50,468 nt of DNA from Candidatus Planktophila sp. (GTDB lineage: Bacteria > Actinomycetota > Actinomycetes > Nanopelagicales > Nanopelagicaceae). The stretch spans positions 1 through 50,468 of the forward strand of contig JBILXJ010000001.1 of NCBI GenBank assembly GCA_044378655.1. Direction: 5' to 3'. The position numbers were made by a program, and so were the translations under genes. The notes below the pieces were generated by a model that saw only the letters and a program-made list of their open reading frames with translations, had not been told where the DNA came from and ran no database searches. The number at the start of each line of letters is the position of its first letter. The first letter of the stretch is position 1. Positions 28,724 through 39,986 of this stretch are shown one piece after another.

Positions 28724-28851
28724 AGTCGGTATTATTCCCGAAATCCCCGCTGATAGCGCCCAGAAAAGCCTGTTTGAGGCAGTGATATTGGTCAGAAAGC
28801 ATGAGTCAGGTCACAGCAGATTCGGCCATGAATTTGATTAGAATTCGAACC

Positions 28852-29289
28852 ATGAGCAGCGCAGAAACCTCAAAGATCCGTGTAGTTATTTACTCAGATG
28901 ACTCAGCGGTTCGAGCTGCCGTCATCTCGGCTCTAGGTCGCAAGATCGCTGCCGATCTACCTGCGCACGAAGTGATTGAATTTGCCACAGCCCCGGCTTT
29001 ACGAGCATTTGTGGATCGCCGAGATTTAGCTGGAAATTTCAAAGCCGACCTCTTCATATTAGATGGCGAAGCAGTACCTGAAGGTGGAATGGGCGTTGCT
29101 CGTCAGTTAAAGGATGAAGTATTTAATTGTCCGCCAGTGCTTCTCATTACCGGTCGCAAGGAAGATGCTTGGTTAGCTGCTTGGTCTCGCGCAGAGTCAG
29201 TAGTGACGCACCCAATTGACCCGTTTACCTTGGCTCAATCTGCTGCCGACTTGTTGCGCAAACAAAATCTCGCAACGACGAATGTCTAA
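28852..29289 (+). CDS. Stand-alone atypical receiver-domain protein
   Basis: VIYSDD, ILDGEAVPEGGMG, LLITGR, THPIDP; conserved gene before trpD in Actinobacteria. ATG 28852 lies 7 nt after TAGAAT. Confidence 0.75.
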   Translation: MSSAETSKIRVVIYSDDSAVRAAVISALGRKIAADLPAHEVIEFATAPALRAFVDRRDLAGNFKADLFILDGEAVPEGGMGVARQLKDEVFNCPPVLLITGRKEDAWLAAWSRAESVVTHPIDPFTLAQSAADLLRKQNLATTNV

Positions 29290-32983: not shown

Positions 32984-34630
32984 TTACTTACTAGCCAGAC
33001 GGGCTTCGCGACGAATGCGTTGTTCAGCAGGATCTGGAACTGGAACTGCTGAGATTAAACGGCGTGTGTACTCACTCTTTGGATGTTGCAAGATCTGATC
33101 GCGATCACCAACTTCAACGAGTACGCCGTTCTGCATTACAGCAATGCGGTGAGCCAAGATGTCAACCACGGCTAAGTCGTGCGAGATGAAGAGACAAGCA
33201 AAGTTTAGTTTGCCTTGAAGTTCTTGCAGTAGATCTAAGAAGCGCGCTTGAACTGATACATCGAGCGCCGAAGTTGGTTCGTCAGCGATTAACAGGTCAG
33301 GCGTTAGCGCAAGCGCGCGAGCGATACCCACGCGTTGGCGTTGACCACCAGATAGTTCGTGTGGGTAGCGGTTACGGTAGCTACGAGGAAGTTCTACTTG
33401 ATCAAGCAGATCTTCAATGCGATGCGCAAGTGCTTCACCCTTTGCTTCACCTGCAAGGAAGAGCGGCTCGCCAATAGATTCACCAATCGGAAGACGCGGG
33501 TTGAGTGATGAAGCTGGATCTTGAAAAACAATTCCAGTATGGCGGCGAATTTTCGAAAGTTCTTTTGCACTTGCGTGGCTTATATCTTTGCCCACGATCT
33601 CAAGGCTTCCGTCTTTAATTGGAATCAAACCAATTGCAGCACGACCAATTGTGGTTTTTCCAGAACCTGATTCACCAACCAGACCAAGGATTTCTCCTGG
33701 ATAGATTTCAAGGCTTACATTTTTCGCTGCAACAAATTCAGGAATGCGGCCACGCTTTGGGTAGGCGACGGTGACATTGTCTAGTTTTAGAACTGGCTGC
33801 GGCTTTGACTTCTCGTTGTACGCAAGTGTGCGTCGCGCTGTCGTGCCAAGTTTTGGAACTGCAGCAAGAAGCTGTTGAGTGTACGGATGAGCTGGTCGAT
33901 TAAAGATTTGATCGGCTGTTCCGTGCTCAACTGTGTGACCATCTTTCATAACCAGAATCTCATCGGCCATATCGGCAACAACGCCCATATCGTGAGTGAT
34001 TAGAAGAATCGCCGAGTTAAGTCGGTCTTTTAAGCTACGCATTAAATCGAGAACTTCAGCCTGAACTGTTACATCGAGAGCAGTAGTTGGTTCGTCTGCG
34101 ACTAGTAGCCCAGGATCACAAGCTAGTGCTTGTGCGATCATCGCACGTTGGCGTTGTCCACCTGATAATTGGTGAGGGTACTTGTCAATTGATGTTTCTG
34201 GATCTGGGATTTCAACCATGGTAATAAGTTCGAGAGCGCGAATGCGAGCTTCTTTAGGACCCATATCGAAGTGGGTGCGCAGAGTTTCGATGATTTGAAA
34301 ACCAATTGTGTAGACCGGGTTTAAAGCCGTCATTGGTTCTTGGAAAATGTAGGCAACTTCTTTACCGCGGTACTTGCGCAGAGTAGATCCCTTTGCGCCT
34401 AGCATTTCTTGGCCTTTAACTTTCACGCTTCCGTACATGCGTGCGTTACTTGCGAGCAGACTCATCAGACCCATGGCTGTTGTTGATTTACCAGAACCAG
34501 ATTCACCAACAATGGCCAGTACTTGTCCTGGGTTTAACTCAAAATTCATGTCAACAGCAGCTGGATACCAAGTGCCATCTACCCAAAACTCAACTGTGAA
34601 ATCTTTAACCTTCAATACTGGTTCGCTCAT
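32984..34630 (-). CDS. Peptide ABC transporter ATP-binding protein, fused OppD/OppF
   Basis: Two NBDs: GESGSGKS / [20 protein letters not shown] / [16 protein letters not shown] twice, HPYT; GAAAGG RBS. Confidence 0.95.
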
Positions 34631-35277
34631 CGAACTACCTTTCGTGAGACACTATTGGTATGACTAATCCGGAGATTTATCGCGCAAGAAGTAGTTACTT
34701 CTTCGCCATTTCCATTTACTTTCTTACTGCTGGTCTGACTGCGCAGAGTTTTTACTTGGAAACCGTCAATAGCTTCATCACAACCCTTAGTTGGTCGCTG
34801 CTGATCAGCTATCTCTTCCACCTGGCCTTTATCCGCCCTAAGGTGACCATCTTTGATGAAGGAATCACAATCACTAATCCATTTCGCGAGATCACTATCG
34901 GTTGGGATCTGGTTCAAGAAATCAGCGCTAAATTCTCTATGTATGTGACGGTCGGCGGCGAGAAAGTTTACGCTTGGGCGGCACAGGCCCCCGGCAGGTA
35001 TCACAGTAGAAATGTTCATGCCACCGAGGTCAGGGGATTGCAAATACCCGACACTAACAACATGCGCGCTGGTGAATCTCCGCGAAGTCACTCTGGAGTA
35101 GCGGTAGCTCTTGCGCGGATTCGCCTCGATGCTTTCGCGAGTACCCAAACTATTGGCGCTACTTATCGTTCTGATTTTAATAGAAACGGTTTCTTTGTTC
35201 TGGCAGCGCTGTTTGCCACCGCGATTCTGGTAACCATTTTCTGAAAGCAGTTCGTTTTCAAAAAGTAAGTTAGACAT
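34627..35277 (-). other. Uninterrupted antisense ORF (216 aa from ATG 35277) linking the oppC stop to the oppD/F start
   Basis: Open frame is in the ORF track (34627..35310). ATG 35277 overlaps the oppC stop (ATGTCTAA); TGA overlaps the oppD/F ATG (ATGA). Product has no recognisable family. Confidence 0.4.
34660..35244 (+). CDS. Membrane protein with bacterial PH-like domain, antisense within the opp operon
   Basis: Two N-terminal TM helices, RPKVTIFDEGITITNPFREITIGWDLV (bPH-like), AWAA, C-terminal TM. Confidence 0.75.
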   Translation: MTNPEIYRARSSYFFAISIYFLTAGLTAQSFYLETVNSFITTLSWSLLISYLFHLAFIRPKVTIFDEGITITNPFREITIGWDLVQEISAKFSMYVTVGGEKVYAWAAQAPGRYHSRNVHATEVRGLQIPDTNNMRAGESPRSHSGVAVALARIRLDAFASTQTIGATYRSDFNRNGFFVLAALFATAILVTIF

Positions 35278-36352
35278 TAGCCGCCGCATTTCGCGCCTGA
35301 ACTTTTGCATTTTCTTTATCTTTTTTAGTCAGGCGTCGACGTTGACGTGGGTCGAATGCATCACGAAGGCCATCACCGATAAAGTTGATCGAAAGAGCGA
35401 TAGTAATAATTAACAGACCTGGCCACCAGAACAGCCATGGGCGAGTGGTGAGCGAGTCTTGGAACTGGCTAATTAGTGAACCAAGTGAAACATCTGGTGC
35501 AACAACACCAAAGCCTAGGAATGAAAGCGCAGTTTCAAGCAAGATCGCACCAGACATCAAAAGAGTGATTGAAACGATGATTACCCCAACAGCATTGGGC
35601 AGAATGTGCTTAAAAATAATTCGGCGATTGCTTGCACCAGCTACTCGCGCAGCATCAACGAATTCCAGCTCTCGCAACTTTAAGAATTCGCCTCGCACCA
35701 AACGTGAAAGTCCCGTCCATGCAAAGAGTCCCAAATAGAAGGCCAGAAAGCCCACACCTAGGTTTCCGAAGTGATAACCAACTACCGAACCGATAATGAT
35801 TGAAGGAATAGTGATGATGAAGTCAGTAAAACGCATCAAGACTGAGTCAACCCAACCACGGAAGTAACCAGAAATTGCGCCAACTGTAATTCCGATAACA
35901 CCGGCAAGTGCGCCAATCACAAATGCCACATAAAGTGAACGTTGCGCCCCACGCATTACCATCGCAAAATAGTCATGACCGATATCGTCTTGGCCAAATG
36001 GGTGCATACCAAGACCCATTCCGGTTCCATCAATAACAGATGGAACTAGATCGATTGTTGGGCAGCCGACAATTCCAGGTGGGCAACCCTCGGTGCGAAG
36101 ATCAAGTAGCTCATCAAAGCCATGCTTCCACCAACCAGGAATTGTCCAAGGACCAATCTTTGTTTCAAGCGCGGTAAAAACCATGGTGATCAGCGAAGCT
36201 AGAACGAAGACGGAAGTCATCGCCGCCTTATGTCGCACAAAGCGACGCAAAACAATCTGTCCCTGGCTTAAACCTTCAGTCTCTTTATTGAAGATGGCTT
36301 GTTCACCGGAGGTCTCTATCTCGACAGCTTTCTTACCTTTGCGAAGAACCAT
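35270..36352 (-). CDS. oppC: Peptide ABC transporter permease OppC/DppC
   Basis: RRFVRHK, HPFGQDDIG, EFVDAARVAGAS, HILPN, ETALSFLGFG, GDGLRDAFDPR. Confidence 0.93.
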   Translation of the reverse strand: MVLRKGKKAVEIETSGEQAIFNKETEGLSQGQIVLRRFVRHKAAMTSVFVLASLITMVFTALETKIGPWTIPGWWKHGFDELLDLRTEGCPPGIVGCPTIDLVPSVIDGTGMGLGMHPFGQDDIGHDYFAMVMRGAQRSLYVAFVIGALAGVIGITVGAISGYFRGWVDSVLMRFTDFIITIPSIIIGSVVGYHFGNLGVGFLAFYLGLFAWTGLSRLVRGEFLKLRELEFVDAARVAGASNRRIIFKHILPNAVGVIIVSITLLMSGAILLETALSFLGFGVVAPDVSLGSLISQFQDSLTTRPWLFWWPGLLIITIALSINFIGDGLRDAFDPRQRRRLTKKDKENAKVQARNAAANV

Positions 36353-37911
36353 TAGTTACCTCCTGAGCCAGCGCGAATTCGCGGATCTAATGCCGAATAA
36401 AGTAGGTCTGCGACTAGATTCGCAGCCACTGCCAAGAAACCAGTCAAGAGGAATACACCCATAAGTAAATTAAGGTCATATGTGTTGATCGCTTGATTAA
36501 AGAGCGTACCCATTCCGATCCAGCCAAAGATGCGTTCGGTAATGATCGCACCACCGATAATCGAAACGAAGTCGACGACCATAATTGTGGTCAGCGGAAT
36601 CATGGTGTTGCGGAAAGCATGTCGCATGATCACAGTACGTTCGGTAAGACCTTTTGCTCGCGCGGTACGCATGTAATCCTGATTAAGAACATCAAGTAGC
36701 GTTCCGCGGGAGAAGCGAACATAACCAGCAAATGAAATCAGCAGAAGCGCCAGCGTAGGCAAGAACATATGCACTAGAGCGTCAAGCAAACTCATCCAGA
36801 AGTTTCCTGGCTCAAGCAAAGCATTCACTTGACCGACAGTTGGAATCGGGCGGAAGTAGACCGCATCAGTTGACATGTACGGCTGCCAGGTTTGCATCAA
36901 CTCATTGATCACAAGCAGGAGACCCATAACAAAGGCTGAAATCATGGAAGTGCGGATAATTGGGCCACGATCAATTTTCGTAAACTTAAGTGGCACTACG
37001 CCGGCGACCACAAAAAGAGTAATTATCATCAACGGATAGATGATTATTTTTCCATCTTGGTCAAACAACCACTGCACTGGGTAGTAAAGAACGACGGCAA
37101 TGGCCGCCATCGCAAGTGAGGATCTGAGTGCAGCCTTATTGCTGATTCCAGTAGAAAGCTGCGTTACTCCGAAGGCGACGCCAACGGATAAGAAAGCGAT
37201 TCCGAACACGCCTAACGAAGGATTAGCGAACCACTTGGTAGTGCTAAGGAAAGACAGAAAAGCAAAGTTAACTACGAAAACGCCAGCAAAGATCTGTAGG
37301 ACTCGAGTGCGTGTTCCGCTAATGATGGCAGACCAGAAAATTCCACTTGCGACACTCAGACCGATAAGCCAAGTGAGCGGAATTGTTGGATTGCCAAGGA
37401 AGTTATTGAACTGAATGGCTAGAAACTCTTTTAGAAGAACCGCAACCCAGAAAATAGGAAGTGAGAACATTAAGAACGAAACGAAAGTCATGGCATAGTC
37501 AAAACGCGAATATTGACGAAGTGCTGTGACGATACCGATTGTGATTCCGAGCAGGATTGCAATGATGGTAGCTGCTGTTACTAGTCGAATCGTTGCTGGT
37601 AGCGCGAGCAGAATTTCATTGATTACGGGTTGTTGTGTGCGGGTTAGCCCGAAGTCTGGCTGTCCAATGAAAATTCCGAGAATTCCACGTAGCCAAAGGA
37701 AATAGCGAAGAGGTGGTGGAACATCCAAATTCAGATCACGGGTAAGGGCAATAATCTGTTGCTGCGCGTTAGGCTCACGGCTCAAGCGCAAGTCTTCAAG
37801 TACATCGCCGGAGATAGCAGCAAGATTGTAGAGAATGAAGCTCGAACCAAAAAGGATAACGAAGAGAACACCTAGGCGCCTGGAAATATAAGCGAACACT
37901 TTTTCAGTCAC
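36352..37911 (-). CDS. oppB: Peptide ABC transporter permease OppB/DppB, with large hydrophobic insertion
   Basis: YISRRL, LDVPPPLRY, DYMRTARAKGL, RHAFRN, ITERIFGW.GMG, DLLYSALDPRIR. Start GTG 37911 or 37899. Confidence 0.92.
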   Translation of the reverse strand: MTEKVFAYISRRLGVLFVILFGSSFILYNLAAISGDVLEDLRLSREPNAQQQIIALTRDLNLDVPPPLRYFLWLRGILGIFIGQPDFGLTRTQQPVINEILLALPATIRLVTAATIIAILLGITIGIVTALRQYSRFDYAMTFVSFLMFSLPIFWVAVLLKEFLAIQFNNFLGNPTIPLTWLIGLSVASGIFWSAIISGTRTRVLQIFAGVFVVNFAFLSFLSTTKWFANPSLGVFGIAFLSVGVAFGVTQLSTGISNKAALRSSLAMAAIAVVLYYPVQWLFDQDGKIIIYPLMIITLFVVAGVVPLKFTKIDRGPIIRTSMISAFVMGLLLVINELMQTWQPYMSTDAVYFRPIPTVGQVNALLEPGNFWMSLLDALVHMFLPTLALLLISFAGYVRFSRGTLLDVLNQDYMRTARAKGLTERTVIMRHAFRNTMIPLTTIMVVDFVSIIGGAIITERIFGWIGMGTLFNQAINTYDLNLLMGVFLLTGFLAVAANLVADLLYSALDPRIRAGSGGN

Positions 37912-37984: not shown

Positions 37985-38024
37985 GAAAGAGTGGTATCCA
38001 GATTGCTCCAGATACCACTCTTTC
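37985..38024 (-). terminator. Hairpin downstream of oppA (terminator or mRNA stabiliser)
   Basis: gaaagagtggtatc (37985-37998) and gataccactctttc (38011-38024) form a perfect 14-bp stem. Confidence 0.8.
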
Positions 38025-38060: not shown

Positions 38061-39914
38061 TTAGTTCTTGAAGTACCAATCCCATAAGTTCCAAATCAAG
38101 TTTGGAGAGAATGGTGATGGAGCGACGCCCATCAATTTCGCAGAAACACCGTTAGCTGATGGGTGTTGGAATACAGGAAGCGTTACCGCATCCTTAATTA
38201 GTTCCGCATCAACCTGGATGAATTTAGCTTCAATCTGAGCAGGTGTTAGTGGTGACGCACCTAGCTCTTTGTAGATCTTGTCGATTGTTGCATTTGAGTA
38301 ACCCTGAGCATTTGCTTGAGTCTCATATGTTCCAACGTTTCCTGACTGGAATGCTGCGCTCTTTACCCAGGCAAAGAATGCTGCGTCGTACTTTGGATCC
38401 TCAAGGAATGAAGACCAACCAGATGTAGGAGTTACATCGACATCAAAACCAGCCTTTGCCCATTCAGCCTTAGCAAGTTGTGATTGTGATACACGACGTG
38501 AGTTGCTTGGCGCACCGAAAAGAAGTTTGATCTTTACTGATCCGCTTCCGGCTGCTGCATCTGGGTAGTGCTTCTTGACTAGTGCAAGAGCAGTTGCAGT
38601 ACGTGATGCTTGTGTACCTTCGGTGAACTTCGAGACGCCTGACTTAGCGATGATGTTCTTGTAAGAAGGCTCTGAGTTAAAGACCATCAATGAGTTCATC
38701 AACTGTGATGTTGGGTTGATTGGCTTAATGATCTTTTCGATGATCTCTGCACGTGGGTATGCAAGAAGGAAGGCGGTGCGTAGATCCTTAGCTTTCTGTG
38801 ACATTCCAGCGAAAGGACCGTTGTACGGAGCTTGTGTTCCGTATGCAGGACCAACACGTAGATCTAGGTGCTCGTAAACAGCCTGATCTCCACCGATTAC
38901 CTTGACTGCTGGTGCCATCGCCTTAAGTTGTGCGACCGCATCTGCAGTAGGTTGACCAGCGTAAACATCGATTTCGCCATTCTTAAGTGCTTGTGCAGCG
39001 GCGGTTCCATCACCAATAACCTTGAAGACTACGGTGTTGATTGCCTTGACCTTTGGTCCTGAGTTGTACTTAGGGTTACGAACCATTGTTACTGCGCCAT
39101 TAGGAACAGCTGACTTGATCATGTAAGGACCATTACCAACGAGAAGAAGTGGATTTGTTGAAGAATCAATCTTGTTGATGTTGTAATCCTTTGACCAAAC
39201 TGCACCAATCTTCTTCAGTGCTGCTGTGTCATATGACTGGAAGATCTTGTAGAAGCGCTCTTTAGCTGCCATGTTCTCTGCAGCAGTTCCAAGCTTTGTT
39301 TTGCCTTCTAGTGCCATCATTACAAGTGTGTGTACTGGTGATACACCAGGTGAAAGTAGACGCCAATCTGGCACCTTTGCGCTGTATTCAACAGTTACTG
39401 ACATCTTGTCCTTTGACAAGATTGGTAGACCAACTGCGAATTGCTCGTAAAGTCCACCGTAACCAAGTGAGTTAAATGCTGGAGTTACATCTGAATCTGC
39501 AGGATCGCCAAGACCGGCAATCGCTGAGTATGCGTCAGATGAAACAACGTGTGTTAGAAGTAGATCGATACCGTTGATAGGTGTTCCATCTGACCAAACA
39601 CGACCTTTGTTTACTGTGTACTGAACCTTGTAAGGTTTTTGGCTTACAACCTTGTAGGTACCAAAGGCTTTGTTATCAACCAATGTTGCCTTGTCGTTGT
39701 AATAGGTGAAGCCGATACTTGAAAGGTAATTAACATCTGTGTTGAATGTGAGGTTCATGTTTGTAACGCTTGGGTTGATACCTGTTAGCGCGTTACTTTG
39801 AACGATTGAAACTGTGGTCTTAGGGGCTGCATTAGCTGGGCTAAGCAATCCGACAGCAAGACCTGCCGTTGCGGCAGCAGCGATAGCTGCAGTCGCGAGA
39901 CGGTTTAACTTCAT
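38061..39914 (-). CDS. oppA: Family 5 peptide ABC substrate-binding protein
   Basis: WSDGTPI, GNGPY, LVRNP-like MVRNPKY, ALKNGEID, YEHLDL, LPVFQHP. ATG 39914 follows GGAGGA; Sec signal ends in ANA, no Cys. Confidence 0.92.
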   Translation of the reverse strand: MKLNRLATAAIAAAATAGLAVGLLSPANAAPKTTVSIVQSNALTGINPSVTNMNLTFNTDVNYLSSIGFTYYNDKATLVDNKAFGTYKVVSQKPYKVQYTVNKGRVWSDGTPINGIDLLLTHVVSSDAYSAIAGLGDPADSDVTPAFNSLGYGGLYEQFAVGLPILSKDKMSVTVEYSAKVPDWRLLSPGVSPVHTLVMMALEGKTKLGTAAENMAAKERFYKIFQSYDTAALKKIGAVWSKDYNINKIDSSTNPLLLVGNGPYMIKSAVPNGAVTMVRNPKYNSGPKVKAINTVVFKVIGDGTAAAQALKNGEIDVYAGQPTADAVAQLKAMAPAVKVIGGDQAVYEHLDLRVGPAYGTQAPYNGPFAGMSQKAKDLRTAFLLAYPRAEIIEKIIKPINPTSQLMNSLMVFNSEPSYKNIIAKSGVSKFTEGTQASRTATALALVKKHYPDAAAGSGSVKIKLLFGAPSNSRRVSQSQLAKAEWAKAGFDVDVTPTSGWSSFLEDPKYDAAFFAWVKSAAFQSGNVGTYETQANAQGYSNATIDKIYKELGASPLTPAQIEAKFIQVDAELIKDAVTLPVFQHPSANGVSAKLMGVAPSPFSPNLIWNLWDWYFKN

Positions 39915-39986
39915 GTTTCCTCCTAGAGCATAAGAAAAGTGGATGTGAAGAGTCGACATACGTCACAGCCACCTTTGGGTGGGCAA

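Follow-up and report, generated by a model that had tools for sequence, protein, structure and literature searches.

A stop-free frame antisense to a PH-domain gene as a probable translational bridge within an opp operon of Candidatus Planktophila

In the window, a stretch of 50,468 nucleotides from Candidatus Planktophila sp., the minus-strand genes oppA, oppB, oppC and fused oppD/F are interrupted between oppC and oppD by a plus-strand PH-domain gene, and a frame without stops crosses the whole insert on the operon strand (Table 1). Comparison of homologous loci indicates that the openness of this frame and the placement of its two junctions are real and strongly selected, far beyond chance. 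The frame is interpreted as a translational bridge that is kept by selection and whose product is cheap and probably disposable, a reading to which a probability of about 0.7 is given. Ribosomes ending oppC would re-initiate on the bridge at an overlapping start, cross the backwards PH gene on the stop-free frame while making a probably disposable peptide, and on leaving it re-initiate on oppD by termination-reinitiation. Such a route presumes one mRNA from oppC to oppD; it would tie the output of the ATPase to that of the permeases and cover about 650 nt of otherwise naked RNA against Rho, nucleases and pairing with the PH mRNA.

The layout had been proposed in a sequence-only reading of the window. 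The ORFs and Pfam matches agree that a PH-like membrane gene interrupts the minus-strand operon between oppC and oppD/F, and the 217-codon frame claimed to span the gap is an ORF of 216 aa plus TGA lying codon for codon antisense to the PH gene. The sequence also confirms that its ATG overlaps the oppC stop (TAA) as ATGTCTAA and its TGA the oppD ATG as ATGA. The bridge frame has further ATGs at 35289 and 35310, which precede the oppC stop by 17 and 38 nt. Co-directional, functionally linked genes split by a gene on the opposite strand, the arrangement of a noncontiguous operon, were found in the window and in the homologous loci. The same reading had compared the 5' junction with that of trpD. 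ATGTCTAA is indeed present where the TrpD-family gene begins (29282-29289), but chance alone predicts 1.67 matches per window and the parallel was rejected as uninformative. At that site a 162-aa ORF (28801-29289, plus strand), for which no Pfam match was found at 1e-5, is joined to the TrpD-family gene by ATGTCTAA.

Table 1. Features of the opp locus and of the embedded PH gene, in positions of the window
Feature	Position	Strand	Remarks
oppA-like substrate-binding protein	38061..39959	-	SBP_bac_5, E 2.8e-29; ORF
18-pair hairpin between oppA and oppB	37985..38024	-	
oppB-like permease	36352..37911	-	BPD_transp_1
oppC permease	35270..36352	-	BPD_transp_1, OppC_N; TAA inside ATGTCTAA
5' junction ATGTCTAA	35270..35277	-	bridge start 5 nt before oppC stop
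Bridge ORF, 216 aa + TGA	34627..35277	-	codon-register antisense to PH gene
PH membrane protein, bPH_6, 194 aa	34660..35244	+	PF10756, E 2.1e-5
TG-n-nAnnnT motif, conserved	34644..34653	+	ends 6 nt before PH start
Shine-Dalgarno-like GAAAGG	34638..34643	-	in last bridge codons, 7 nt before oppD ATG
3' junction ATGA	34627..34630	-	bridge stop overlaps oppD start
Fused oppD/F ABC ATPase, 548 aa	32984..34630	-	ABC_tran x2, oligo_HPY

The PH gene is judged, from its sequence and predicted structure, to be the real protein-coding gene of the overlap. The protein scored 24.9 bits against PF10756 (bPH_6), above the family cut-off of 22, although the match covers only positions 1-32 of the 73 in the profile. 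Its predicted structure had a pLDDT of 92.4 and a pTM of 0.84 (97-row alignment), and the family shows conserved motifs and residues with a mean column identity of 39%. No solved relative was found by sequence or Foldseek, nothing being returned at E <= 0.001.

An antisense frame in this register stays open only if the PH gene avoids TTA, CTA and TCA. The 15 Leu codons of the gene are TTG (2), CTT (3), CTC (2) and CTG (8), and none of its 16 Ser codons is TCA, just as had been counted from the letters. The frequencies assumed then (30% of Leu, 20% of Ser) and the resulting chance of 1e-4 were replaced by computed ones: in 470 long ORFs of the genome TTA/CTA make up 42.7% of Leu and TCA 31.1% of Ser codons, and the probability of drawing none among 31 codons is about 6e-7, which makes the original argument stronger. 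A codon model called 928 genes, of which not one is without these codons or has a 150-codon run free of them, the set being biased to typical codon usage and omitting the PH gene itself, which scores poorly on that model. The genome holds 295 pairs of opposite-strand overlaps of at least 110 codons, and among the pairs listed no other in-register pair exceeds 141 codons.

In the family of the window (f1), 125 loci with 126 unique PH genes were sampled, and 117 of these genes lie between oppC and oppD. The orthologous PH genes compared were about 25-80% identical. L046 (a rho locus) was left out, as were L121 and L379 (oppC stop mis-assigned) from the junction and expectation counts; the codon tests omitted L112 and L387, which have no opp genes, and PH genes shorter than 150 codons. 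Three loci from genomes flagged unpublished were excluded from the analysis. Across the 117 loci only two antisense stops were observed among 1844 Leu and 1987 Ser codons, and both are marginal to the bridge: that of L107 precedes the bridge start, and that of L105 ends the bridge 10 nt early. With expectations taken from the oppC/oppD usage of each locus, 1023 stops were expected in the 116 loci that could be scored, and 730 in 106 further loci, in which none occurred. Orthologous PH genes thus do not carry TTA, CTA and TCA at background frequency, and the depletion of stop codons in the alternative frame that marks antisense overlapping genes is present.

The positions of both ends of the frame are also kept. 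Relative to the oppC stop, the bridge start of the 117 loci was found at -5 (33 loci), -1 (24), +2 (28), +4 (4), +5 (18), +6 (2) or +11 (7), with one locus mis-scored, and relative to the oppD start the bridge stop was found at +1 (54), +5 (26), -2 (18), -3 (17), -5 (1) or -10 (1). Of 116 loci, 109 offer a start within -5 to +6 of the oppC stop in the bridge frame, versus 10 and 12 in the two control frames. At the oppD start, 115 of the 116 loci (all but L105) have the first stop of the bridge frame within -5 to +5, versus 20 and 7 in the control frames. A stop-start overlap or a very short gap, as in termination-reinitiation, is therefore seen at both junctions. With seven 5' and six 3' geometries in use, it is position that is kept rather than sequence. 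The alignments of PH orthologues bear out the expectation of the sequence-only reading that both overlaps would stay intact while the amino acids of the bridge drift. Silent sites are saturated among distant pairs of the family (about 41-56% GC), so the open frame is not explained by shared ancestry of sequence. At four-fold sites, compared within the same genomes over 24 disjoint pairs, PH and its neighbours did not differ significantly (Wilcoxon p 0.28), a comparison confounded by recombination of oppD.

These counts bear on the simplest alternative, in which the frame is a shadow ORF, open by chance or as a by-product of codon bias or of horizontal acquisition of the PH gene. GC-rich genomes often have in-register antisense frames that are open by chance, several PH homologues without opp genes have an open antisense frame, and the PH gene fits the codon model of its genome poorly. 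The finding of two stops where 1023 were expected, in loci of about 41-56% GC whose silent sites are saturated, junctions specific to the bridge frame, and the return of stops wherever the same gene in the same orientation lacks oppD nevertheless make this alternative very improbable.

The return of stops was observed in natural losses. All nine unique PH genes of the f1 set without oppD behind them carry 5-16 antisense stops; eight are copies in duplicated opp clusters and the ninth (L112) has no opp genes. Three more broken copies, located beside oppC with no oppD behind, have 9-14 stops. In PH genes of the same orientation without oppD, the stops are thus back at the background rate. Where one locus holds two PH copies, the copy before oppD keeps the open frame: in L107 the bridged copy is the second, which precedes oppD, and the broken one is the first, which has a second oppA behind it; in L054 the order is reversed. 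Three changes of the label 'broken' are required on a quick tree of 97 proteins, and from the sequences the losses are taken to be few, amounting to three independent events. The third loss concerns three genomes of one genus of the family f4, in which the gene order is kept but the frame has 4-5 stops, the spacers are longer and oppC is followed by a hairpin. The hairpins after oppC in these three genomes and in L419 reach -30 to -46.5 kcal/mol (z -4.9 for L134), which gives a weak hint that the hairpin is tied to the loss of the bridge, equal folds being present in some bridged GC-rich loci. PH homologues in L420-L422 lie beside an oppA-like gene without oppC or oppD and carry 4-7 antisense stops each.

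The same layout was found in the families f55 and f4 of the class, with 103 unique PH genes, 99 of them with both neighbours. Ninety-eight of the 99 have no antisense stop, and the five stops observed against 118 expected all belong to one locus. Both junctions fall inside the strict window in 87 of 99 loci, versus 1 and 1 in the control frames. At more than 65% GC an open frame is expected by chance in 38 of 61 loci; in GC-rich members openness alone is weak evidence and the junctions are not. A GC-rich ancestor probably had the in-register frame open by chance, and selection would then have held it open as lineages became AT-richer. Scans of named genomes and metagenomes added 160 loci and 123 new unique PH genes, 107 with both neighbours; none of the 107 has an antisense stop and 95 are coupled within -14 to +14. 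According to record titles, which may be wrong, the coupled layout occurs in Ca. Planktophila (closest to the window, 62%), Nanopelagicaceae, Microbacterium, Leifsonia, Clavibacter, Humibacter, Ilumatobacter and an Acidimicrobiales bin.

The order oppC-PH-oppD is also kept in places without tight coupling. The 12 of 99 loci of f55 and f4 outside the strict window are of this kind, and coupling fails in 12 of the 107 named-genome and metagenome loci, six of which start 17-27 nt after the oppC stop, and in 7 of 16 loci of a sample drawn partly from the genus already seen to lose the bridge. About 10 f4 loci have no near start or a frame that ends early. The six loci with the late start are low in GC, and one of them is titled Rhodoluna. 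In the low-GC clade L292-L298, L302 and L398 the start lies up to 17-27 nt past the end of oppC, and the frame terminates 8 nt inside oppD; it nevertheless remains free of stops, and a non-standard start or SD-led initiation is possible there.

For the bridge peptide no Pfam, NCBIfam or PDB match was obtained, its predicted structure had a pLDDT of 48.8 and a pTM of 0.17 (92-row alignment of nearly the same loci as for PH), and its mean column identity was 24% versus the 39% of PH. The only near-invariant residues are those forced by the Trp and the start codon of PH. At 30 conserved PH columns Hobs/Hexp of the third base was 0.955, versus 0.945 and 0.928 in oppC and oppD (60 representatives). 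Neither site-specific conservation nor a fold, as expected of an antisense protein-coding gene, was found for the bridge protein.

These properties weigh against a true antisense overlapping gene with a protein job of its own, for instance as a disordered partner of the ABC ATPase, coupled as a member of the operon, and this alternative is considered unlikely. It would account for a full-length frame with a start, a stop and an SD-like signal, for the loss of the frame where oppD is not adjacent, and for the listing of the bridge as a protein by gene callers, in 85 clusters. It would also fit the substitution counts, made pairwise between extant sequences, in which bridge-altering, PH-silent changes were reduced to 0.58 (95% 0.46-0.71) of the doubly silent ones, with a trend falling with the BLOSUM score. 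Yet a similar ratio, 0.64-0.76 on small counts, was obtained for broken copies (oppC/oppD control 0.86), and the positional loss is equally explained by redundancy, as an ATPase partner could act in trans in duplicated clusters. In the first-position test, changes non-silent in both frames were not reduced in comparison with those silent in the bridge. The reduction of bridge-altering changes leaves room for a weak constraint on the protein, one that the sequence comparisons put as much weaker than that on PH.

The composition of the bridge peptide, by contrast with its individual residues, is selected, as judged from codon counts. The NCA codons of PH, which are read as Trp or Cys in the bridge, make up 0.14 of the Ala, Thr and Pro codons in bridged PH genes and 0.32 both in broken copies and genome-wide. 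The bridged share of GCA, ACA and CCA lies below the first percentile of the genes of the genome (0.154). The share in PH was lower than in the oppC of the same locus in 173 of 179 bridged loci versus 6 of 11 broken ones. Relative to expectation, Cys (0.45) and Trp (0.44) are depleted and Gly (1.39) and Ser (1.44) enriched. By a table of residue costs, 171 of 175 bridged loci, which are not independent of each other, have a peptide below the expected cost, versus 5 of 11 broken ones; a saving of nitrogen is not specific to bridged loci, being seen also in 10 of 11 broken copies. Avoidance of Trp and Cys together with low cost is an indirect sign that the bridge is translated, since selection on cost and avoidance of stop-like codons would both need translation. 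The earlier suggestion that the frame carries ribosomes whatever the peptide is favoured over that of a real overlapping gene, with the qualification that the peptide is not fully free, since Trp, Cys and costly residues are avoided.

Signals for initiation were found at both junctions. A peak of SD-like sites precedes the bridge start, with 31% of 198 loci at or below -5 kcal/mol versus 0-6% in most upstream windows, and before oppD an SD-like site with dG <= -5 kcal/mol is present in 66% of 198 loci, so that oppD might also initiate without the bridge. No structure hiding the oppD SD was found in the window (z -0.29), and a mechanism in which ribosomes unfold such a structure received no support. 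Upstream of the unique f1 PH genes the motif TG-n-nAnnnT is conserved (column frequencies T-15 0.86, G-14 0.88, A-11 0.90, T-7 0.88), and it is likely to be an extended -10 promoter of a leaderless mRNA. This promoter-like motif, the SD-like site of oppD and the last bridge codons share a 29-nt spacer. A scan with a sigma-70 model, unsuited to this phylum, gave no promoter near the insert, and no terminator-like site was seen at the junction.

The oppD site is relevant to a second unlikely alternative, that the bridge is translated only as a cover of the RNA against Rho, nucleases and a duplex with PH mRNA, and that oppD is initiated afresh at its own SD. Rho is present, the SD-like site before oppD is strong in 66% of loci, and some loci tolerate stops 8-30 nt before oppD. 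A mere cover would, however, have no need of an open spacer of 28-71 nt or of an end within 5 nt of the oppD start, seen in 115 of 116 loci versus 20 and 7 in the controls, and the operon strand of the bridge has no excess of C over G (C 0.240, G 0.247). The strict 3' junction points to re-initiation on oppD in addition to the shielding.

In unstranded RNA contigs from five of 24 listed runs each junction was crossed at a depth of 2-4, that of oppC-PH by X1 and X2 and that of PH-oppD by X2, X3 and X5, and none spanned the insert; such contigs give neither strand nor level, and gaps in their cover carry no weight, but they are compatible with a single oppC-oppD transcript, albeit weakly. Contigs over oppA were much deeper than those over oppB-D, contig depth being a poor measure of abundance, and the oppA-oppB hairpin lies between.

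The proposed bridge resembles several known systems in part. Noncontiguous operons of S. aureus share with it a gene of opposite direction inside an operon, with its own likely promoter; in the accessible text of that atlas (PMC11034616) the antisense stretch is untranslated, is called intriguing and is explained by runaway transcription in B. subtilis-like bacteria, whereas the present locus has an open frame coupled at both ends. Runaway transcription is tied to many low-GC Gram-positives in the accessible part of PMC13323073, where no mention of Actinobacteria was found in this context. Termination-reinitiation, as described in the portions available of PMC10666635, PMC6728339 and PMC12548453, offers the ATGA and TAATG/TGATG overlaps, an SD in the upstream frame and subunits of heteromeric complexes; re-initiation is reported to depend on overlaps or on gaps well below 20 nt and to be enriched where the genes encode subunits of complexes (PMC10666635, in part), and Rho polarity on untranslated RNA is established (PMC12548453, in part). 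The difference is that the middle cistron here looks like a dummy encoded opposite another gene, and in the accessible text of the review on coupling (PMC12548453) none of the words 'antisense', 'opposite', 'non-coding' and 'nonfunctional' occurs. Long antisense genes of P. aeruginosa (PMC8850804) and pop/ompA of E. coli (PMC7103648; review PMC7457138) are likewise long, stop-depleted antisense ORFs, presented in the excerpts available as evolutionarily novel and with protein-level selection or a phenotype; the bridge occurs in three families or more and is linked to the genes on either side, and its protein has no site-specific conservation.

In leader peptides and in the dummy upstream cistrons of bicistronic designs the act of translation, not its product, is the function. 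These are short and placed upstream, whereas the bridge has about 200 codons, is internal and is overlaid on a conserved gene. A description of such a bridge was not found in the literature searched, most subscription papers and supplements being outside that search.

It is probable, though somewhat less so than the bridge itself, that bacteria keep ancient 'dummy' genes selected for nothing but the passage of ribosomes over an embedded antisense gene and tuned by selection towards low cost and the absence of Trp and Cys, and that noncontiguous operons survive in this way in bacteria with Rho and coupled transcription-translation. If so, some long conserved antisense ORFs would be functional as tracks and not as proteins. 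The bridge would offer a concrete answer to the puzzle, raised in the part of PMC11034616 available, of how an operon transcript crosses a ribosome-free antisense stretch, and ribosome cover on it might weaken the mutual repression of overlapping transcripts. To the debate on whether long antisense ORFs act through their proteins it would add a clean case, with more than 1000 expected stops purged and no residue kept for itself. For annotation, the consequence is that a frame of this kind gets called as a gene: the bridge frame is present in protein databases in 85 clusters, most of 211-227 aa and some labelled 'hypothetical protein', and the PH gene may be missed in annotations that call it. 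An open in-register frame, two coupled junctions and cheap residues constitute a signature searchable genome-wide.

Several minor observations concern the history of the PH gene. Of the genomes searched, 50 of 151 and 110 of 301 gave a PH match, the latter being genomes of the order, in which the gene is patchy; the PH gene of the window obtains better scores with several other genera than with many genomes from its own. This patchiness and the cross-genus scores suggest, on sequence scores, transfer of the cassette. In the pairs L026/L067, L023/L058 and L061/L084 oppD is far more alike than oppC and PH, which points to recombination at the PH-oppD boundary. In one clade of PH genes (L052 7631-8260, L107 10024-10653, L105, L108, L109 and L110) the called start overlaps the oppD ATG head to head; the promoter would then be inside oppD, or the start would be mis-called. 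Tandem opp clusters (L107, L054, L052, L108, L109 and L124) each keep a PH gene after oppC, although in L107 oppD is present in the second cluster alone, and this co-duplication with the opp genes suggests that the PH protein works with the permeases.
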